A DNA stretch of 47,065 bases, taken from Actinomycetes bacterium. Lineage in GTDB: Bacteria; Actinomycetota; Aquicultoria; CAJVYJ01; JAUVQD01. This document shows, in pieces, positions 1,190 through 46,493 of the stretch (position 1 is its first letter; the number at the start of each line of letters is the position of its first letter). A program made the position numbers and the translations under genes. The DNA lies in contig JAUWRD010000002.1 in the NCBI GenBank assembly GCA_030610765.1, forward strand, positions 1 through 47,065. The letters run 5' to 3'. The notes under the pieces were generated by a model that did not search any database, was not told where the DNA came from, and saw only the letters and a list, made by a program, of their open reading frames with translations.

Positions 1190-1420
1190 GGTCACAATTA
1201 ATTTTATTTTCATATTTGCTCACCTCAATCCGCGAAGGCATCACATTCTAGGCAGGTCTCCTGACTTCTAGGCTCAAATGTCCTAGTCACAGTGGCGGGT
1301 CCGTGGCCGAATTTCACGGCCTTCCCTATTCTCCTAAACCGCTTAGCGCTAACTCTTTTAACGGCTTGGCACCTGGAACTTTTCTCATAACCACCGGCTT
1401 TGCCAGCGGTTATTACAACG
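1190..1420 (-). promoter_or_regulatory. Cobalamin (B12) riboswitch in the leader of the binding-protein/permease operon
   Basis: The minus strand reads ...AATAGGGAAGGCCGTGAAATTCGGCCACGGACCCGCCACTGTG...GAAGTCAGGAGACCTGCC.... This contains the GCCACTG core (plus coordinates 1290..1296) and the B12 box AGTCAGGAGACCTGCC (plus 1251..1266). A candidate -10 TACTAT lies at 1426..1431. The outer boundaries are approximate. Confidence 0.85.
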
Positions 1421-2318: not shown

Positions 2319-3227
2319 TTAAAAAACCACCGAGGCAGTGACGACAACAGCCAGACAACCCATCGCCAGCCAATCAGCGCGCTTTAGAGCGGGCAGGGGC
2401 AGTGCGTTATATCCGCCAGTCCAGCCGCGAGAAATCATAGCTGTTGTAACTTGATCTCCCAGATAAACGCTTCTCTTGAATATCCACCCGATGCGCCCGG
2501 CTGCCCAGGCCCTCTCAGACTTGGCGTCGCCCGTCCTGATGGTTCGGCTTTTTCTGGCCAAGAAAACATTGTTTGTCAGCTCTGTGAGAATAAAGAGATA
2601 CCTGTACGTCATCCGCAACAGAAGAACTGCCAGCTTTGGTATGCGCAACGCCGACAAAGAAGCAAAAGCAAGATGTGGCGGCGTGGTTCGCATAACCAAC
2701 TGAGTCGCCGAAAGCATAGCGAGCGCCCTGGTGAAAAAAGTCGCGGCCATAACCAGGCCCGTGTTCGTAATAGTCAATTGCGAAGATGGCGTTAACCAGA
2801 GAATCTGATTTGGCAGATTAACTAAGAACAAAATGGGCTTCCCCGGAGTCACAAGATTTAGCGTCATCGGCAAGACAAAAGGCATTGAGAAAACAATAGT
2901 CGGGCCAAGAGTCACTCTAAGATATTTGCCGATATCCAACCGCGATATAAATGAAGTTGCCAATATTGCAACATATATCCCAAGAATAACCGGAATGGTT
3001 GTAGACAAACTTAACGCTACCAAAAGAAATAACAGGCTGGCCATTTTTATTCGCGGATCAAGTTTTTGAAGCAGACCGTCGTTTACCGGGGGCTTATTTA
3101 CCAGCAAAAACTCACTTAAGAATTTTCGCGATGTTTTTTCAGCCCGGTTGATGAAGGTCTTTCTTAACTCGCGTCTTCCATGCGACACGGCCGCTGTTTC
3201 CTCTAAAAGCCATCTCGGGGTTTTCAT
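2319..3227 (-). CDS. cbiQ: ECF transporter transmembrane (T) component, CbiQ/NikQ
   Basis: This is a 302-aa polytopic membrane protein. It is abutted by the ATPase stop/start and overlaps the M component by 4 nt. It has a CbiQ-like ARKSR loop. Confidence 0.8.
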   Translation of the reverse strand: MKTPRWLLEETAAVSHGRRELRKTFINRAEKTSRKFLSEFLLVNKPPVNDGLLQKLDPRIKMASLLFLLVALSLSTTIPVILGIYVAILATSFISRLDIGKYLRVTLGPTIVFSMPFVLPMTLNLVTPGKPILFLVNLPNQILWLTPSSQLTITNTGLVMAATFFTRALAMLSATQLVMRTTPPHLAFASLSALRIPKLAVLLLRMTYRYLFILTELTNNVFLARKSRTIRTGDAKSERAWAAGRIGWIFKRSVYLGDQVTTAMISRGWTGGYNALPLPALKRADWLAMGCLAVVVTASVVF

Positions 3228-3919
3228 GACGGCGGGCTCACTGGTCTATTTGCGAGCGTCCGCACTCGCCAACCGCTCTTCTGAAGCTGCCGCAGAATCA
3301 AAGCCGTCAATATACCTTCAACCGCTCCAAAAAAGAGCAGGTTAGCCCCCGCAACCAACGGAATAACCACATGCAACGGATATGGCGCATAGAGCGGCTG
3401 GCCGCCTGACGTCGCGATTAACGGTTGGATTCCTATAAGCACGCCCTGAAAAAGCGAGGCTACACTTAGTCCGATATATCCGGCCAGAAAGGCGCCAATG
3501 TATTTGTGAAGGCGAAGCCGACTGTTTTCTCCGGACAAGAAACGAAATATATAGAAAGCCGAAAACGGCATCAGAAAAGCGAGCGCAAAGCAATTAGCAG
3601 CCAGTGCCGTAACGCCGCCGTCTCCAAAAACAAATGCTTGAATAGCTAGAGCCGTGGAAATGGAAACCATCGCTGCCCAGGGGCCGAGCAATATGCCCAA
3701 CAAAGCGCCGCCAACCATATGGCCGGATCCGACAATCGGCACAGGTATATCGAACATCATAAGAGCAAAAGAGAACGCGCTCCCGACGGCCATCAACCCC
3801 AAATGTTTCTTTGGAAGTTCTTCTTGTACTTTGCGAAGGGCAAGATACCAAAGAGGACTGATCGCCGCGTATGTCGCAGCGTATGTTTGCGGCCCTAGAT
3901 ACCCATCAGGAATATGCAT
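3224..3919 (-). CDS. cbiM: ECF Ni/Co substrate-capture component, CbiM/NikM
   Basis: The N-terminus MHIPDGYL is the hallmark metal-ligating N-terminus of the CbiM/NikM family. The protein is a 231-aa multi-TM protein encoded immediately downstream of nikR. Confidence 0.85.
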   Translation of the reverse strand: MHIPDGYLGPQTYAATYAAISPLWYLALRKVQEELPKKHLGLMAVGSAFSFALMMFDIPVPIVGSGHMVGGALLGILLGPWAAMVSISTALAIQAFVFGDGGVTALAANCFALAFLMPFSAFYIFRFLSGENSRLRLHKYIGAFLAGYIGLSVASLFQGVLIGIQPLIATSGGQPLYAPYPLHVVIPLVAGANLLFFGAVEGILTALILRQLQKSGWRVRTLANRPVSPPS

Positions 3920-16667: not shown

Positions 16668-17537
16668 TTAAGGTTGCACTCGCAACCTCTTCAACGCGTA
16701 TTCGCCAACCGCTGAAAAAACGGGGGCCGCGACTACGCCGCCATAGATAGCGCCTTGTGGTTCGTCTATTGCAACCAAAATTGTCAGTTTCGGATTATCC
16801 GCCGGTAGAAAGCCGATAAAAGATGAAATATATTTTCCGGGATCATAGCCCCTGGCATCAACTTGAGGTTTCTGCGCAGTGCCGGTCTTACCTGCTACTT
16901 TGTATCCAGAAACTTTCGCGTTTCCACCTGTGCCGTTTTCAACCGCCTCGGTCATGATCTCGGCCATTGATGCCGCGGTTGCCTTAGAGATTACTTGCTT
17001 GCTGCCCCCAAGGTCTTTCCTGGTGAACCGAGGTGAAATGAGTTTTCCCTCTGCCGCGACAACATTAATAGCTCGAACCGATTCCAGGCTAGTTGCCGAT
17101 AACCCTTGCCCGAACGGAATGTTTGCGATAGAACTGGCAGACCATATATTTGTCGGAGGTGTGTAACCTTGGCCTTCGTCGGGCAATTCTGCTCCTGTGC
17201 CTTTATTTAGCCCAAAACGTTCAATGTATTGATAGATTCTTTCCGGACCTAGTGACTGCCCGATAACAACCGCTCCTATATTACTCGAGCGGGTGACAAT
17301 TTCTTTAAAAGAAAATATCTCGGCTCCTCTTTCATGAGCTTCATGTATTGTATGTCCGCCCACTTGGATTCTTCCCGGTAAATTCAGTAAAGTACCTGGT
17401 GAATATAGCTTTTCTTCAAGCGCCGCCGACGCGGTGACTATTTTCATCGTCGAGCCGGGTTCGTAAACATCGGAAATGGCTCTATTCCTAAAGAGCTTGG
17501 GGTCTGTCTCTGAGAACTTGTTTAAGTTATATGTCGG
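16668..17537 (-). CDS. ftsI: Class B penicillin-binding protein FtsI/PBP2B, C-terminal transpeptidase part (same frame as the upstream fragment, separated only by a TAA)
   Basis: My own translation of 17448..17537 gives PTYNLNKFSETDPKLFRNRAISDVYEPGST. It joins the track ORF (MKIVTASAALEE...) to give the SxxK motif STMK. KTGT is present downstream (AGKTGTA). Confidence 0.85.
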   Translation of the reverse strand, partial: PTYNLNKFSETDPKLFRNRAISDVYEPGSTMKIVTASAALEEKLYSPGTLLNLPGRIQVGGHTIHEAHERGAEIFSFKEIVTRSSNIGAVVIGQSLGPERIYQYIERFGLNKGTGAELPDEGQGYTPPTNIWSASSIANIPFGQGLSATSLESVRAINVVAAEGKLISPRFTRKDLGGSKQVISKATAASMAEIMTEAVENGTGGNAKVSGYKVAGKTGTAQKPQVDARGYDPGKYISSFIGFLPADNPKLTILVAIDEPQGAIYGGVVAAPVFSAVGEYALKRLRVQP

Positions 17538-18362
17538 TTAGTTTGCGAGTGCGTATACTTCGCCGGTCTGACTATCCATAACAACAATCCAGCCAGCAGT
17601 TGCCTTCCATTTATTGACAGCTCTTCTAAGCTCTACCTGAGCCTTATATTGAATCTCCTTGTCTAGCGTTAAAATCAAGTCGCGACCGTGTGTGGGAGGG
17701 AGATACTTGTACTCTCCTCCTGGTATAGGTCTGCCAACTAAGTCTTGCTCCATTATCAGTTGGCCCGGTTTGCCTTTTAAATACGAGTCAAAACTTTGTT
17801 CAACGCCATTCAATCCATCGTTGTCCATTCCAGCAAAGCCAATTACATGCGCGGCAATTGCCTTTCCGGGGTAAAAACGCTTACTTTCAGGAATAAAACC
17901 TATCCCCTCGATATTGAGGTTTTTAATTTTAGCGATAACGTTCTTGTCTACTTTTCGTTTGATGTATACGAAACCGAGCTTCATCTTCAATTTTTTATAA
18001 AGCGACCTTCTGCTCAGCTTGAGAATGGGCGCTAAGCGCCTGGCCACAACCCTTTTCTGGTAACCCTTGATCTGCAGGGGATTCGCGAAAACGGTATCTT
18101 TGTCGAGACTTATCGATAATATCTCACGATTTCTGTCGTATATGATGCCTCGCTCAGGCACCAACTTAATCGTCGTTAATCTCTGGTTCTGGGCCATTTG
18201 ATCGAACTTTTCCGCTTTTACAGCTTGGATTGAAACCAAGCGGACGCCAATGGTAAGTAAAAAGAATATTAGTAAAAGAAATAAAAAAGGAAACCTGTCT
18301 CTAGGCTTCCTTTTCCGTCTATTTTTCTTCCGGGTTCCGGGGAAGAAAGCTATCTTCTTCAC
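17538..18362 (-). CDS. ftsI: Class B penicillin-binding protein FtsI/PBP2B, N-terminal TM anchor plus dimerisation-domain part, ending at an in-frame TAA
   Basis: It has a basic N-terminus, one TM helix, a PBP dimer-domain-like sequence (RGIIYDRN, HVIGF) and ends ...SQTGEVYALAN-TAA. This is the position where FtsI homologues continue with xP(S/T)(Y/F)NPN. Confidence 0.85.
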   Translation of the reverse strand: MKKIAFFPGTRKKNRRKRKPRDRFPFLFLLLIFFLLTIGVRLVSIQAVKAEKFDQMAQNQRLTTIKLVPERGIIYDRNREILSISLDKDTVFANPLQIKGYQKRVVARRLAPILKLSRRSLYKKLKMKLGFVYIKRKVDKNVIAKIKNLNIEGIGFIPESKRFYPGKAIAAHVIGFAGMDNDGLNGVEQSFDSYLKGKPGQLIMEQDLVGRPIPGGEYKYLPPTHGRDLILTLDKEIQYKAQVELRRAVNKWKATAGWIVVMDSQTGEVYALAN

Positions 18363-27801: not shown

Positions 27802-28548
27802 TTAGACCGCGACAATCAAGCCCTCGTCGGCCAAATCTATCTTACCATTAAACTCTAACCTGACCTCGTCAAGGATGCGACGGCGATCAAAGTGCGGCCA
27901 GAGGTGCGTTAAGACCAAATGCTCGACATTAGCCTCGGCGGCCAGCTTTCCAACCTCCGTTGTAGTCATGTGAGCGACCGGTGTACCGGCTTGATCGGCT
28001 GTTAGAGTGGCTTCCGCCAGAAGCAGATCAACTCCGGCCGCGATTTTATTAAGTTTTTCATCGTACGCGGTGTCGGATGTATAGAAGAGACTTTTTCCCT
28101 GCGCTCTGGCTTCTATGCCATAGGTCGGTTTTAGGTGCGAAACCTCGTGACTGATTATTTCAATGTCCCCTATCTTTATGGGCGAAGCCCCGCCAAGATC
28201 CTTGAAACTGAAAATTTTGCTGAACTTCGCTGGATCAGGCTCATTAAACAAACGTTGAATATATTCACGAGCCCCGGATGGAGCATAAACCGCTAGCGGT
28301 AGCTTGCCCTGGCCGCAAAACTCCAAGAAATATCGATAGGGGTAAATATCCAGGAAATGATCAGGATGAAGATGCGTAATGATTAGAGCGTCAAGATCCT
28401 CCGGCGCCAACCATTCGTACAAGCGACTTAAGACTCCCGTGCCCATATCAATTAAAATATTTGTCTTGTCGTCGCGAACCAAGTAACCATTGCAAGCACC
28501 GCCCGCTCTGGGAAAAGTCCCAGAGGCGCCAACTACAACTACCTCCAC
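27802..28548 (-). CDS. MBL-fold metallo-hydrolase
   Basis: It has the HxHxDH motif (THLHPDH) and a later conserved His/Asp pattern. Specificity is not assignable. Confidence 0.75.
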   Translation of the reverse strand: MEVVVVGASGTFPRAGGACNGYLVRDDKTNILIDMGTGVLSRLYEWLAPEDLDALIITHLHPDHFLDIYPYRYFLEFCGQGKLPLAVYAPSGAREYIQRLFNEPDPAKFSKIFSFKDLGGASPIKIGDIEIISHEVSHLKPTYGIEARAQGKSLFYTSDTAYDEKLNKIAAGVDLLLAEATLTADQAGTPVAHMTTTEVGKLAAEANVEHLVLTHLWPHFDRRRILDEVRLEFNGKIDLADEGLIVAV

Positions 28549-28563
28549 AAAATCACCGGAACC

Positions 28564-29031
28564 TCACAACTCTTTTCCGACGCCCGGCCTGATTAGAATT
28601 CGCGAATTCAAGATCAAGAGAAGGAGAGGCAAGCCAAGCCCGTAGATGACAATTATTTCACCTACGGATATAGTGGCGATCAAAAAAAACAGAGCTTCGG
28701 GCACGGGCACAGCCACCAAGTATTTCAGCATAACCGCCACCCCGATACCATTAATGAGAACCGGAGGGATAAGCGCGAAATATGGATTTCGTATTCGCCA
28801 TGTTAACCAAGCCGCAACCAGCGTCAGGCTCGAACCGAAAACAACGTCGATTAAACCAAATGGTCCATAAAAATTGGCCGTCGCCGCGCCTAACCATAGG
28901 CCGGGAATGGCCGCCGGCTCGAAATAAGCGAGAACAGTCAGGACCTCGGATACTCTAAACTGAAGTGGCCCATAAGATATAGCGTTCAGGCCCGGGGTAA
29001 CCGTTAAAACAAAGTATAATGCTGCTATCAA
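28564..29031 (-). CDS. queT: QueT-family membrane protein (queuosine-precursor ECF S-component-like)
   Basis: This is a 155-aa protein with five hydrophobic segments. The N-terminal AALYFVLTV...ISYGPLQFRVSEVLTVL matches my recollection of the QueT family. Confidence 0.6.
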   Translation of the reverse strand: MIAALYFVLTVTPGLNAISYGPLQFRVSEVLTVLAYFEPAAIPGLWLGAATANFYGPFGLIDVVFGSSLTLVAAWLTWRIRNPYFALIPPVLINGIGVAVMLKYLVAVPVPEALFFLIATISVGEIIVIYGLGLPLLLLILNSRILIRPGVGKEL

Positions 29032-42271: not shown

Positions 42272-42757
42272 ATGGAAAAAGAAGAAGTTCGACACGCTAT
42301 CGGAAACACGTTGATATTTGCCCTCGGGATAGGTGTAGGTTTTTTAACGGCACCGAAGACCGGGAGAGGAACACGAGCATGGTTACACGATAAAACGCAG
42401 CATTACAAAAAGGAAATGCGGACAGCCGAGCGTCGCGTCAAATCAAAAGTCGCTTACGAGGAAGGTCAGCTTAAAGGATTGGCCCACAAAGCAAAACAGC
42501 TCACCATTGTGCCGGGAGAAGATGGATATGTTGATGACGTGGTTACGCAACGAGTCAGAACAAAGATTGGTGAAAACCCGGGGACAGCCCATCTACCGCG
42601 TATAAATGTCGACACCGCTGATCAAGTCGTGACTTTGCGAGGACGTGTGCCATCTGATCGGGAAAAAGAGACGCTCGAGAAGATCGCAACGGATGAGCCC
42701 GGTGTCGAAAAAGTTATCAACAAAGTAACTGTGTCCAGAAAAAAGGCCACCGGATAA
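42272..42757 (+). CDS. YtxH-like N-terminal segment plus BON-domain protein
   Basis: The N-terminus has a hydrophobic helix then APKTGRGTRAWLHDKT (YtxH-like). The C-terminus, VDTADQVVTLRGRVPSDREKETLEKIA...GVEKVINKVTV, follows the BON-domain pattern. The SD is AAGGAGGA. Confidence 0.7.
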   Translation: MEKEEVRHAIGNTLIFALGIGVGFLTAPKTGRGTRAWLHDKTQHYKKEMRTAERRVKSKVAYEEGQLKGLAHKAKQLTIVPGEDGYVDDVVTQRVRTKIGENPGTAHLPRINVDTADQVVTLRGRVPSDREKETLEKIATDEPGVEKVINKVTVSRKKATG

Positions 42758-42762
42758 CGACT

Positions 42763-43167
42763 ATGGCCAAGAACAAGTTTATTGAAGTGATCAACAAAGA
42801 GCTGGGCTTGAGAGATTCAAAACACGCTGAAATAGCAGCCGGCATTGTTTTGAATACCCTTCAGGAGCGGCTGACGGAAGATCAGGCAGAGCGCATTGAA
42901 GCCGATCTTCCAAAAGAACTCAAGCCCATGTGGTCGCGGGGGCTTACCGATAAACTGCTGTCACTCTGGCGGGGGCCGGAAAAAATGACCAAAGGTCAGT
43001 TCTATGATCGGATTCAAAACCGGGCACATCTAGCAAGTCGGGCTGAAACCGAACATCTAACCCGGGGAGTCTTCAAAGCCCTCAAGCGCCAGCTGCCTCA
43101 AGAGCAGGGCGAAGACGTCGCTACCCAGCTCCCGAGAGACCTAAAGAACTTATGGAACGCGTCTTAA
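42763..43167 (+). CDS. DUF2267-like protein
   Basis: It contains repeated helical modules with an (L/Q)LP(K/R)(E/D)LK..(M/L)W pattern (ADLPKELKPMW, QLPRDLKNLW). This matches my recollection of DUF2267. Confidence 0.55.
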   Translation: MAKNKFIEVINKELGLRDSKHAEIAAGIVLNTLQERLTEDQAERIEADLPKELKPMWSRGLTDKLLSLWRGPEKMTKGQFYDRIQNRAHLASRAETEHLTRGVFKALKRQLPQEQGEDVATQLPRDLKNLWNAS

Positions 43168-43201: not shown

Positions 43202-43420
43202 ATGGCTGAAATAAAGATATATACAAAACCGGGTTGCCCTTATTGCGCCGCTGCCAAGACAGATTTAGATGGCAGGGGCTTAGAATATGAAGAGATCGAC
43301 GTCCTAAGCGACGCCACGGCTTTGGATGAGATGTCCAAATTATCCGGCGGAAAAACTGTGCCGGTCATAGTCGATGGTGAAAAAGTGACCGTCGGCTTTG
43401 GCGGCGGTTGAAGTGTTTAA
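43202..43420 (+). CDS. Small glutaredoxin-like protein, candidate selenoprotein read through the TGA at 43409 (…GFGGG-U-S-V-stop)
   Basis: It has a glutaredoxin fold with CPYC, a TVP cis-Pro and a GG turn. The conventional ORF stops at TGA (43409..43411), which is followed in frame by AGT GTT TAA. A hairpin begins 17 nt after the TGA. As a plain 69-aa glutaredoxin-like CDS (43202..43411) confidence is about 0.9. For the Sec extension it is about 0.5. Confidence 0.55.
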
Positions 43421-43428
43421 CTTCCCTA

Positions 43429-43446
43429 CAACCGCGGTCGCGGTTG
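43429..43446 (+). promoter_or_regulatory. Candidate bacterial SECIS hairpin
   Basis: The sequence CAACCGC-GGTC-GCGGTTG forms a 7-bp GC-rich stem with a GGUC apical loop, starting 17 nt 3' of the TGA. Neither strand has a T-run after it, so it is a poor intrinsic terminator. Confidence 0.45.
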
Positions 43447-43460
43447 ACTAGCATTTAGAA

Positions 43461-43865
43461 TTACTGCTTCGGAAAGAAAATACCGATTTCACGCTTGGCG
43501 CTATCAACAGAGTCAGAGCCGTGTACAATATTCTCGGTAATTTCCAGCGCGAACGCTCCTCTTAAGCTTCCAGGATCAGCTTCAAGCGGATTCGTCGCCC
43601 CGTTTAATTTCCTGGCAGCGGCGACAGCCCCGACACCTTCTAAGACCATTAAGACGACGGGGCCAGACGTCACATGCTTAACTAAGTCGTCAAAAAAAGG
43701 TTTGTCAACATGTTCGCCATAGTGCTGCCTGGCAATATCGGCGCTCAAATTATCCATTCGCAGGTCAACTATTTTTAGACCTTTTGCCTCGTACCGACGA
43801 AGACACTCGCCTGTAAGCTGTTTTCTTACTCCATCCGGTTTTATCATTACAAATGTTCGTTCCAT
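43461..43865 (-). CDS. ndk: Nucleoside-diphosphate kinase
   Basis: It begins MERTFVMIKPDGV and carries the active-site NIVHGSDS. The ATG at 43865 is preceded by AAGGGAGAA. The longer track ORF adds 11 unlikely codons. Confidence 0.95.
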   Translation of the reverse strand: MERTFVMIKPDGVRKQLTGECLRRYEAKGLKIVDLRMDNLSADIARQHYGEHVDKPFFDDLVKHVTSGPVVLMVLEGVGAVAAARKLNGATNPLEADPGSLRGAFALEITENIVHGSDSVDSAKREIGIFFPKQ

Positions 43866-43948
43866 TAATTCTCCCTTGCCTAGTCGCTGCACGATCAAAA
43901 TCTCCAGATGTCAGTTTAGCCAAAAATATACTAAAACAAAACAGTTTC

Positions 43949-44015: not shown

Positions 44016-46493
44016 ATGAGTAAATCAGAAGCATCGACAATCGAAAAGACGACGGTACCTATCTCCGGCCTTCATTGCGCGTCGTGCGTTGGCCGAGTTG
44101 AAGATGTGCTGCGAAAAACAGTGGGCATCAAAGAGGCCAATGTTAATTTGGCGCTCGAAAACGCTCATATTGTTTATGAGACCAAAGAGGTAGATTTAGA
44201 CGGCATCAAGCAAGTTGTCAAAGACGCTGGTTATGATCTGATCATCCCGGAAGAAACGGCAAACAATGAAGTAAACCTGAAAGTCTTGGGGATGCACTCC
44301 CCTCACTGTGCTGGTGTGGTCAGCAAAGTACTCTCCGGCCTGGAAGGTGTTGAGGATTTCAAAGTCGACTTTTCAAACGAGAAAGCGCATGTGCGATTTA
44401 ATCCCGAGATACTCGACGAAGAGAAAATTAGAACCGCTATAAAGGAAGCCGGATATAGACCATTTACAATTAGCGGGTCGGAGATGGCAATAGATCAAGA
44501 GAAAGAGGTGCGGCAAGAAGAATTCCGCGACCTTAAAACCAAACTCATAGTCGCGGCGATACTCTCGCTGATCATCTTTCTCGGCAGTATGACTGAGTGG
44601 TTTCCGTGGACGCCGGCGTTCCTTAAGAACCATTACACATTGGCTTTACTGGCAACACCTGTCCAGTTCTGGGCTGGCTGGCGTTTTTACGTAGGTGCCT
44701 GGGGCGCTGCCAAGCAGCGGACAACCACTATGGATACGCTTATCGCGCTCGGCACATCTTCCGCCTATCTCTTTAGCCTTGTTTTTACCTTAGCTCCCGG
44801 GATATTTCCGCCTGGAGCCGGATCGGTCTATTTCGACACATCCGCGATGATAATCACGCTTATATTGCTTGGAAGATTCTTTGAGGCCAGCGCCAAGGGG
44901 CAAGCGTCTGAGGCTATCAGAAAATTGCTGGGACTGCGGGCAAAAACAGCGCGGGTGATCCGAGACGGAAAAGAGCTTGATCTGCCCATTGAAGAAGTGG
45001 TAGTCGGCGATTTGATCACGGTCAGACCAGGGGAGAAAATCCCGGTTGACGGCGTAATTGACACGGGTTCATCGGCCGTTGATGAATCAATGCTTACCGG
45101 TGAAAGCATGCCGGTTAAGAAGGAGCCCGGCGATGAGGTTATAGGAGCCACAATCAACAAAACGGGTGCCTTCACCTTTAAGACTCAAAAAGTTGGCGGC
45201 GATACTGTCTTGGCAAATATTGTACGCATGGTTGAAGAAGCGCAAGGGTCTAAAGCGCCTATCCAGCGGCTGGCCGATATAATCGCCTCATATTTTGTCC
45301 CGGCGGTTCTAGTAATTGCCTCGATCACATTTGTGGTTTGGCTAATCTTCGGGCCTGAGCCGGCTTTTACTTTTGCTCTCTTAAACTTTGTCGGCGTTCT
45401 GATAATCGCCTGCCCGTGCGCCTTGGGGCTCGCGACCCCGACAGCTATTATGGTCGGCACTGGTCGCGGCGCGGAAAACGGTATCTTAATTAAAGGTGGC
45501 GAAGCCCTTGAGACCGCCCATAAAATAAGCGCCGTCGTTTTTGATAAAACCGGAACTTTAACAAAGGGTGAGCCTTCGGTCACCGATATTTTGACGCACG
45601 GTGATTTCAGCGCGGACACAGTTCTCGCGCTAACAGCGGCGGCTGAAAAAAACTCAGAACACCCGATAGGTGAAGCGATAGTTGGTTCTGCTGAAGCAAA
45701 GAATTTGAAACTCGACCCCGTGACGGCATTTGACTCGATCACTGGAAAAGGGATTGAAGCTGAAATCAACGGCCAAAAAATAGCAATTGGAAACGCGGCC
45801 TTGATGACCGAAAAAGGCGCTGATTACAAAGATCTGGCTCAAAGCGCCAAGGTTCTATCTTTGCAGGGCAAAACAGCTGTCTATATCGCGATTGACGGAA
45901 AGCTAGCTGGTCTGATCGCGGTTGCTGATACCGTGAAAGACCACTCAAAAGCCGCTGTCGATCAACTTCATCAACTAGGCATTAAGGTTGTGATGATCAC
46001 CGGGGATAATCGGCGCACTGCTGAGGCCATAGCCACAAATGTTGGCATTGATAAGGTTTTAGCTGAGGTTTTACCTCAAGATAAAGCGGCGCAGATAAAA
46101 AAGTTGCAGGCGAAAGGTGAGATTGTAGCTATGGTCGGGGACGGAATCAATGATGCCCCGGCCCTGGCCCAAGCCGATATCGGCATAGCCATCGGCACCG
46201 GTACTGATATCGCGATTGAAGCATCTGATATCACATTAATGAGAGATGATTTACGGGCCGCCGTCGGCGCGATCAGCCTCAGCAAACAAACAATTAAGAC
46301 TATCAAGCAAAACTTGTTTTGGGCGTTTTTCTACAATACCTCGTTAATTCCGATCGCTGCCGGAGTACTCTATCCGTTTTATGGTATTTTGTTGAGCCCT
46401 ATTTTTGCCGGAGGCGCGATGGCCATAAGCTCTTTGACTGTAGTGCTAAACTCTTTGCGCCTGCGCCGCGCGAAGATCAGCTCTCTTCACTGA
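44016..46493 (+). CDS. copA: Copper-translocating P1B-type ATPase CopA (two N-terminal HMA domains)
   Basis: HMA1 has GLHCASC and HMA2 has the degenerate MHSPHC. Other motifs are TGESMPV, CPC ([11 protein letters not shown]), DKTGTLT and GDGINDAP. Confidence 0.96.

Follow-up and report, generated by a model that had tools for sequence, protein, structure and literature searches.

Small glutaredoxin-like proteins that carry selenocysteine (Sec) shortly before the stop codon are curated in NCBIfam as the Uxx-star family (NF041212, "Uxx-star family glutaredoxin-like (seleno)protein"). Its members have about 70 residues, an N-terminal CxxC motif in a glutaredoxin (Grx) fold, and Sec, rarely Cys, three residues before the stop. 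A 2026 review credits UXX-star family 1 ("distant Grx-like protein 1") to Zhang & Gladyshev (2008) and gives it two Sec residues and a UxxT motif (PMC13188914). The same review attributes family 2 and the HUGP/GUXX-star fusion to Haft & Tolstoy (2025). It is also suggested there, in general terms, that the Sec of UXX-star proteins may bind metals (PMC13188914). Here we describe a gene of this family at positions 43202-43420 of a 47,065-nucleotide stretch of DNA (hereafter, the window) from an Actinomycetes bacterium, contig JAUWRD010000002.1. We put at about 0.87 the probability that this gene encodes a 72-residue minimal glutaredoxin-fold Uxx-star selenoprotein, in which an in-frame UGA is decoded as Sec by means of a GGUC-loop hairpin and a selenol works together with a CPYC motif.

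The closest described RNA element is the selenocysteine insertion sequence (SECIS) of Escherichia coli fdhF, a stem-loop 3' of the UGA that is bound by SelB. In 5420 of 5426 E. coli genomes the sequence TGACACGGCCCATCGGTTGCAGGTCTGCACC... was located in fdhF; when folded, it forms a stem with GGUC as its apical loop, 18 nucleotides (nt) after the UGA. The published model of the bacterial SECIS (bSECIS) has an upper stem of 4-16 bp capped by an apical loop of 3-9 nt, at least one G among the first two loop nucleotides (followed by G or U), a distance of 16-37 nt from the UGA, and a minimum free energy (MFE) of no more than -7.5 kcal/mol (PMC13188914, Figure 2 legend).

Identification of the gene and its family

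The open reading frame (ORF) at 43202-43408 starts with the ATG at 43202, encodes MAEIKIYTKPGCPYCAAAKTDLDGRGLEYEEIDVLSDATALDEMSKLSGGKTVPVIVDGEKVTVGFGGG and ends in ...V-G-F-G-G-G at 43408. The product that stops at the TGA has 69 residues, and the readthrough product has 72. Gene callers ended every public copy of the protein at residue 69. An initial annotation, made from the letters of the window, had described a CPYC-containing ORF with a Gly-Gly-Gly end, a TGA, codons for Ser and Val, and a TAA, and the sequence agrees with this architecture to the base. TGA terminates just 9 of the 44 genes in the window, which indicates that the standard code is in use and that TGA is not the preferred stop.

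The protein matches the Pfam glutaredoxin domain (PF00462, E = 1.9e-18), and its best model is NF041212, with 103.3 bits for the 69-residue product (cutoff 66). When the tail was added, with Cys in place of Sec, the 72-residue product reached 110.8 bits and aligned to positions 1-70 of the 70 in the model; the tail thus adds 7.5 bits and completes the match. The Sec-x-x-stop that the family requires is found here as TGA AGT GTT TAA (43409-43420), and the window protein also has the length, the N-terminal CxxC and the fold of the family. One homologue (P0051) already bears the name of the family in NCBI. The window gene is a member of a curated and named family, and the kind of gene is known. 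The small glutaredoxin-like families ending in U/C-x-x-stop that the initial annotation had mentioned correspond to this curated family.

The narrower UXX-star models were also compared. Family 1 (NF041114) gave 70.8 bits for the protein as encoded and 77.3 bits with Cys substituted, with a cutoff of 72; the window protein has CPYC, as against the UxxT of the review. Family 2 (NF041211) gave 73.6-75.9 bits (cutoff 100) and family 3 (NF047338) 67-70 bits (cutoff 97). The broad subfamily model NF041212 fits best, and nothing essential in the window protein departs from it. The HUGP/GUXX-star fusion (NF045501) is a fusion protein, whereas the window protein has a single domain. The models of the classical redoxins all stayed under their cutoffs: YruB (TIGR02196) at 67.8 versus 88.55, Grx3 (TIGR02181) at 54.7 versus 90, and NrdH (TIGR02194) at 44.7 versus 85.75.

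Among the representative proteins, four (P0125, P0130, P0144, and P0167) have the Uxx-star domain at the C-terminus of products of 95-202 residues. These may be fusions, such as HUGP/GUXX-star, or the result of mis-called starts.

The TGA codon and the tail in homologous loci

Homologous loci were collected by a scan of one genome per species; of its confirmed matches, at least 594 in number, the 80 best loci were used. Together with the window and three identical metagenome contigs they make up 84 loci, and 481 genes from the same loci served as controls. The loci come from Actinomycetes, Thermoleophilia, Chloroflexota/Anaerolineae, Eremiobacterota/Vulcanimicrobiota, Zixibacteria, Syntrophomonas, Nitrospinae, and others.

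The first in-frame stop was TGA at all 84 loci, and it was always followed by a short sense tail and a real stop. The tail had two codons at 64 loci, three at 17, and four at 3. Its residues are conserved: the first is G, T, S, or A in 76 of 82 and the second V, I, or F in 78 of 82. Among the controls, 49% ended in TGA, and a second in-frame stop 2-4 codons further on was present in 30 of 481 (6%). The initial annotation had named homologues uniformly ending in GFGGG as the outcome that would speak against a selenoprotein; what we found instead was the TGA with a conserved short tail at every locus.

A protein search returned 114 relatives. Nearly all of the called proteins stop at ...VGFGG[GS], ...GFNGY, ...GFDG[AFY], and similar ends, at 69-71 residues. 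Homologues with GG-C-x-x-stop, which had been proposed as something to look for, do exist: P0006 ends in ...GFGGGCRV and P0025 in ...GFGGSCAI, both three residues longer, and P0249 and P0256 are further Cys forms. At the nucleotide level a TGT is aligned with the TGA of the other loci, as GGC TGT CGC GTC TGA in L084 and AGC TGT GCC ATC TGA in L085. In L084 the hairpin known from its Sec-type relatives, GGCGCG-cgugc-CGCGCC, persists with the usual spacing (L084 6200-6245), and this locus looks like a recent conversion of Sec to Cys with a fossil SECIS.

Among the best 150 of the matches from 1.84 billion cluster representatives, at least 29 had shortened ends of the Sec type and 2-3 had Cys-x-x ends. 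By these proportions, about 30 to 2-3 cluster representatives, the Uxx-star family is strongly dominated by Sec forms. Two family-like representative proteins (P0131 and P0180) end in ...GFQGYTAV or ...GFQGIYCSLS, with Thr or a shifted Cys at the expected position of Sec.

The hairpin downstream of the TGA

A perfect hairpin of 7 bp follows the TGA; its stem begins after a gap of 17 nt and its loop after 24 nt (43412-43435). It folds at -11.3 kcal/mol, and the region 43409-43450 at -15.5 kcal/mol. With its GGUC loop of 4 nt on 7 bp, its loop G, its distance of 24 nt, and its energy, it agrees with all four parts of the bSECIS model. The description of the hairpin in the initial annotation (CAACCGC-GGUC-GCGGUUG, 17 nt after the TGA, loop at about 24 nt) holds to the base. 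So does its statement that the distance from UGA to loop suits a bacterial SECIS, and the GGUC loop that it gave for fdhF was borne out by mapping and folding.

Compared with the fdhF SECIS, the window hairpin is likewise a stem-loop 3' of the UGA, and it has the identical GGUC apical loop closed by G-C/C-G pairs. The two differ in spacing (18 nt from UGA to loop in fdhF and 24 nt here) and in the upper stem, which has a bulged U in fdhF and is perfect in the window. They also differ in location: the fdhF element lies within the coding region, whereas the candidate SECIS of the window is in the 3' untranslated region (UTR), because only two codons follow the Sec. By analogy with fdhF, the window hairpin would be bound by SelB.

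The 52 nt after the UGA were folded with RNAfold in 81 unique loci of the family. In 67 of them (83%) we found a hairpin with a stem of 5 bp or more and a loop start 18-27 nt from the U of the UGA; in all 67, a G was present among the first two loop nucleotides. Applied to the controls, this criterion picked out 37 of 481 ordinary stops (7.7%) and 21 of 405 shuffled sequences (5%). The usual loops in the family are CGUG[ACU], GGUC, AGGC, and [A]GUC[U].

In a loop-anchored alignment of 64 unique hairpins, pairs 1-7 were formed in 100%, 98%, 98%, 98%, 91%, 84%, and 70%. Each of these seven pairs occurred as 4-6 pair types, and pairing dropped to 35%-39% when the partner was slid by 1-2 nt. Position 2 of the loop was G in 58 of the 64. 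Because RNAfold chose the hairpins, the inner five pairs are formed partly by construction, and the information lies in the variety of pair types, the slid controls, and the fixed position. The distance from the hairpin to the UGA is kept for tails of two, three, and four codons, and in the loci with three codons the stem includes the real stop. Since this distance is constant over the tail lengths, the hairpin is placed relative to the recoded codon and not relative to the end of the gene. In the region 43409-43460, where the initial annotation had proposed to look for a SECIS, the hairpin agrees with the published model, and its position is conserved across phyla, with covarying stems.

The hairpin is not followed by a T-run on either strand, and a terminator scan was blank at 43421-43460, as had been claimed in the initial annotation. 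Moreover, 24 loci keep the hairpin although a co-directional gene lies 50-100 nt further on. We rejected termination as its main role on these grounds.

The MFE structure of 43409-43450 also contains a small proximal hairpin, GAAGU/ACUUC, which overlaps the UGA, both tail codons, and the TAA (Table 1). This hairpin may extend the SECIS at its lower end, or it may be incidental; its sequence is invariant in the relatives and so gives no evidence from covariation.

Conservation in the close relatives

The exact window protein is present on three other metagenome contigs with the same neighbours. Proteins 83%-85% identical to it are encoded, in the same gene order, in L004 ("Actinomycetes bacterium CSMAG_679"), L087, and L088. 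Among the four relatives, 55 of the 58 columns of 43391-43448, which comprise the last six codons, the UGA, the tail, the spacer, and the hairpin, are invariant. Upstream, in 43202-43390, the invariant third codon positions are 34 of 63 (Fisher p = 2e-7). The sole change in the stem turns an A-U pair into G-U and keeps the pairing. The RNA around the UGA is, as judged from this comparison of sequences, constrained beyond the protein code, as expected of a working SECIS and not of a relic.

Table 1. Positions of the predicted selenoprotein gene, its RNA elements, and the neighbouring genes in the window
Feature	Position	Strand	Basis and remarks
YtxH/BON-domain protein	42272-42757	+	ORF; Pfam labels on identical contigs
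DUF2267 protein	42763-43167	+	ORF; Pfam labels on identical contigs
Coding sequence of the Uxx-star family glutaredoxin-like protein, predicted selenoprotein	43202..43420	+	72 codons (69 + UGA-Sec + Ser + Val), TAA stop
CPYC redox motif codons (residues 12-15)	43235..43246	+	Translation; G-C-P-Y-C invariant across family alignments
In-frame TGA, predicted to be read as Sec (residue 70)	43409..43411	+	TGA at 84/84 homologous loci; TGT in Cys homologues
Small proximal hairpin GAAGU/ACUUC over UGA, tail codons, and TAA	43410..43424	+	MFE structure of 43409-43450
Tail codons AGT (Ser) and GTT (Val), 43412-43417; true stop TAA, 43418-43420	43412..43420	+	Family tail pattern; NF041212 model completed
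Predicted bacterial SECIS hairpin in the 3' UTR: 5' arm CAACCGC 43429-43435, loop GGUC 43436-43439, 3' arm GCGGTTG 43440-43446	43429..43446	+	
Nucleoside-diphosphate kinase (ndk), convergent; stop 14 nt past the hairpin	43461..43898	-	NCBIfam NF001908, 190 bits (cutoff 155)
Copper-translocating P1B-type ATPase (CopA-like), 0.6 kb downstream of the gene	44016..46493	+	TIGR01511, 652 bits (cutoff 397)

selB next to genes of the family

The homologous loci were searched by tblastn with E. coli SelA, SelB, and SelD. The matches were to SelB, in five Anaerolineae loci only, plus an EF-Tu-like match in L014. In the five loci (L012, L017, L018, L022, and L032) a full-length SelB homologue is encoded about 450-600 nt upstream of the family gene on the same strand, and that of L017 passes NCBIfam TIGR00475 (329 bits, cutoff 242). 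ARAGORN found no tRNA-Sec in 60 homologous loci. In all five Anaerolineae loci, selB, an unannotated ORF of about 120 residues, and the Uxx-star gene stand in a row on one strand (e.g., L017 2199-4178 and 4623-4835).

Protein architecture and proposed mechanism

An AlphaFold model was made of the Cys orthologue P0006, which is 56% identical to the window protein. The model has a mean confidence (pLDDT) of 92.8 overall and about 86 in the tail. Its topology is beta1-alpha1-beta2-alpha2-beta3-beta4 with nothing beyond, and it has no C-terminal helix. The nearest solved structures are BC3987 (3zij), Clostridium cGrx1 (7c10), Grx3 (3grx, 1fov), and NrdH (4fiw, 1h75), with TM-scores of 0.77-0.81, and profile comparison with solved glutaredoxins gave E-values down to 1e-22. 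In the profile alignment, the G-F-G-G of the family is matched with the G-[CS]-D-D at which the C-terminal helix of the classical glutaredoxins begins. This G-[CS]-D-D segment lines the glutathione site beside the CPYC motif.

Grx3, NrdH, BC3987/YruB, and cGrx1 share with the family the thioredoxin/glutaredoxin fold and a CPYC-type motif. The classical small redoxins lack Sec and have an additional C-terminal helix (GG[CS]DD...), whereas proteins of the family end after strand 4 with GFGG-x-U-x-x. Because the model ends at beta4 and the GFGG aligns with the start of the helix, the family appears to have exchanged the last Grx helix for a Gly-rich linker bearing Sec.

We propose that the UGA at 43409-43411 would be decoded as Sec by SelB carrying Sec-tRNA(Sec), and that SelB would be recruited by the GGUC-loop hairpin at 43429-43446 in the 3' UTR. 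Ser and Val would then be added, and translation would end at the TAA. The tail of the protein would be the Gly-rich linker G-F-G-G-G-U-S-V, on which the selenol could reach Cys12/Cys15 of the CPYC motif and form a selenenylsulfide. The product might act as a self-contained selenol/thiol redox relay or as a Cys2Sec set of ligands for soft metals, and in either role it could serve membrane-associated partners such as the neighbouring P1B-type ATPase.

Mammalian thioredoxin reductase has a redox-active Sec in a C-terminal Gly-Cys-Sec-Gly tail; it is a large flavoprotein, and its Sec pairs with the adjacent Cys of the tail. The selenenylsulfide proposed here may be comparable to that of this GCUG tail or, in another analogy, to glutathione in the mixed disulfide of a glutaredoxin. 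The predicted window protein and the reductase have in common a Sec near the C-terminus on a flexible segment containing Gly, next to an exchangeable dithiol centre. They differ in that the window tail has no adjacent Cys, and the only partner thiols are those of the CPYC in the same domain. The likeness would be one of mechanism and not of homology.

Genomic context

The YtxH/BON-domain gene, the DUF2267 gene, and the Uxx-star gene are co-directional, with gaps of 5 and 34 nt, and are probably one operon. The same gene order is found in L003, L004, L087, and L088. On the other side, the Uxx-star gene and ndk are convergent, and the hairpin lies in the 40-nt gap between them.

In other lineages the neighbours are different. 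In 14 loci from Thermoleophilia, the family gene begins immediately after a gene for a Cd/Zn-type P1B ATPase (TIGR01512, 515 bits). The Cys forms show a similar order: in L084 an ArsR-type regulator is followed by an ATPase and then by the Grx gene, and in L085 the end of an ATPase gene precedes the Grx gene. Nine actinobacterial loci (L021, L044, L057, L067, L068, L072, L073, L077, and L078) have a gene for a TlpA/ResA-like thiol:disulfide oxidoreductase lipoprotein about 50 nt beyond the family gene. In 15 loci of the Eremiobacterota type the gene is followed by that of a protein of about 600 residues, apparently membrane-bound, which matched no NCBIfam model. The context is lineage-specific and leans towards envelope redox and metal handling, which agrees with the metal binding suggested for the Sec of UXX-star proteins (PMC13188914).

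The recurrence of ATPase genes raises the idea that the Uxx-star selenoprotein is a dedicated partner of P1B-type heavy-metal ATPases, either as a Cys2Sec seleno-metallochaperone or as a reductant of the metal-binding cysteines of the pump. We consider this rather doubtful at present: two or three independent arrangements underlie the link, which is a lead only, and we found no demonstration of a specific partnership between a Uxx-star protein and an ATPase in the accessible literature.

Weighing of the alternatives

Several observations weigh against Sec insertion at this locus or against parts of the mechanism proposed for it. No selA, selB, selD, or tRNA-Sec was found within the 47-kb window by ARAGORN, Rfam, and tblastn with E. 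coli SelA/SelB/SelD; at the Rfam gathering threshold, neither a SECIS nor a tRNA-Sec was matched in the whole window, where the only match was a cobalamin riboswitch away from the gene. A search of 43350-43500 in the E-value mode of Rfam, up to E = 10, matched no SECIS family; the bacterial SECIS models in Rfam are lineage-specific, and for this reason the null result carries little weight. With 24 nt between UGA and loop, the window element has one of the longer spacings in the family, where most are 16-19 nt. The 5' arm of the hairpin has two possible partners, because GCGGTTG (GCGGUUG in the RNA) occurs twice, at 43403-43409 (codons GGC GGT TGA) and at 43440-43446 (the 3' arm), and the MFE fold of 43400-43470 takes the upstream copy as the partner. 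The hairpin lies between convergent genes, and it may have a secondary role as a terminator. Finally, the ATPase gene of the window is separated from the Uxx-star gene by ndk on the opposite strand. A regulatory switch based on the alternative pairing of the 5' arm was considered; only 7 of 67 family loci show this alternative, and the idea was dropped as incidental.

One alternative is that the TGA is a plain stop in this organism. The protein would then have 69 residues and end in GFGGG, and the tail and hairpin would be relics left after the loss of the Sec machinery, or the hairpin would be only a terminator. The lack of Sec machinery in the window, the 9 genes for which TGA is a genuine stop, the position of the hairpin in the gap between convergent genes, and the end set at residue 69 by the gene callers in all databases are consistent with such a stop. 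A relic should decay, however, and the UGA, the tail, and the hairpin are instead far more invariant than the synonymous sites upstream, with a single stem change that preserves the pairing. Lineages that abandoned Sec changed the TGA to TGT and did not keep it. A terminator as the only function is at odds with the missing T-run, the blank scan, and the 24 loci in which the hairpin is retained ahead of a co-directional gene. We regard a plain stop as unlikely. It is still less likely that the UGA is read through without Sec, by a near-cognate Trp or Cys tRNA or by a Cys-charged tRNA(Sec), to give 72 residues with another amino acid at position 70. Such readthrough is compatible with the rare homologues in which Cys is functionally acceptable at this position, but the standard code is in use, with TGA ending genes in the same window, and a conserved SelB-type hairpin that has a loop G and keeps its distance from the UGA is a feature specific to the Sec pathway; in addition, selB adjoins the family gene in five genomes. 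An ordinary NrdH-, Grx3-, or YruB-type redoxin with a chance TGA and a chance GC hairpin might be invoked because the domain also matches these models and the nearest solved structures are BC3987, cGrx1, Grx3, and NrdH; yet the scores lie below the cutoffs of those models and above that of Uxx-star, and the statistics of TGA, tail, and hairpin over the family exclude chance, so that coincidence is effectively refuted. The proposal of a Sec-x-x-stop selenoprotein in the initial annotation is therefore supported by the family assignment, by the TGA and tail at 84 of 84 loci, by the hairpins, and by the pairs of Sec and Cys forms. The family membership, the pairing of TGA with Cys, the conserved tail, and the conserved SECIS-type hairpin are shown by these data, and the insertion of Sec in this organism, like the chemistry of the tail and its partner, is inferred.

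Other features of the window

A scan of the window for other genes with an in-frame TGA gave no convincing second selenoprotein. The same-frame pair 28564-29031 / 27802-28548 was considered as a second TGA gene and was rejected as two unrelated genes. In the dcw cluster, the gene for an FtsI-like penicillin-binding protein (PBP) at 16668-18362 (-) is split by an in-frame TAA (...EVYALAN*PTYNLNKF...) into the ORFs 17538-18362 and 16668-17447, which are in one frame. The TAA stands at a position of the PBP motif that is normally Tyr. The gene could carry a nonsense mutation or be a pseudogene, or the TAA could be a sequencing error; as a Sec site it was dismissed, the codon being TAA and not TGA.

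ARAGORN reported a 94-nt "tRNA-Gln (ttg)" at 3243-3336 (-), inside the ORF 3224-3919. This ORF looks like a CbiM-type membrane protein, and the tRNA is probably a false positive. The cobalamin riboswitch (RF00174, 70.3 bits) is at 1234-1391 (-), upstream of an ORF (168-1157) whose product resembles a substrate-binding lipoprotein; judged by eye, the neighbouring ORFs look like NikR- and CbiM/Q/O-type genes.

Significance of the probable recoding

The general picture of bacterial selenoproteins is unchanged by this locus. To the description of the family our results add the dominance of Sec, the placement of the SECIS-type hairpin in the 3' UTR with a constant spacing from the UGA, and one Cys form with what looks like a fossil SECIS. 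They also add that the gene repeatedly adjoins those of heavy-metal ATPases, of a TlpA/ResA-like oxidoreductase, or of SelB. Gene callers lose the Sec, which is probably a key catalytic or metal-binding residue, and the recoding corrects the annotation. It also marks the organism, which belongs to an uncultured lineage of the Actinomycetes type, as a likely user of selenium.

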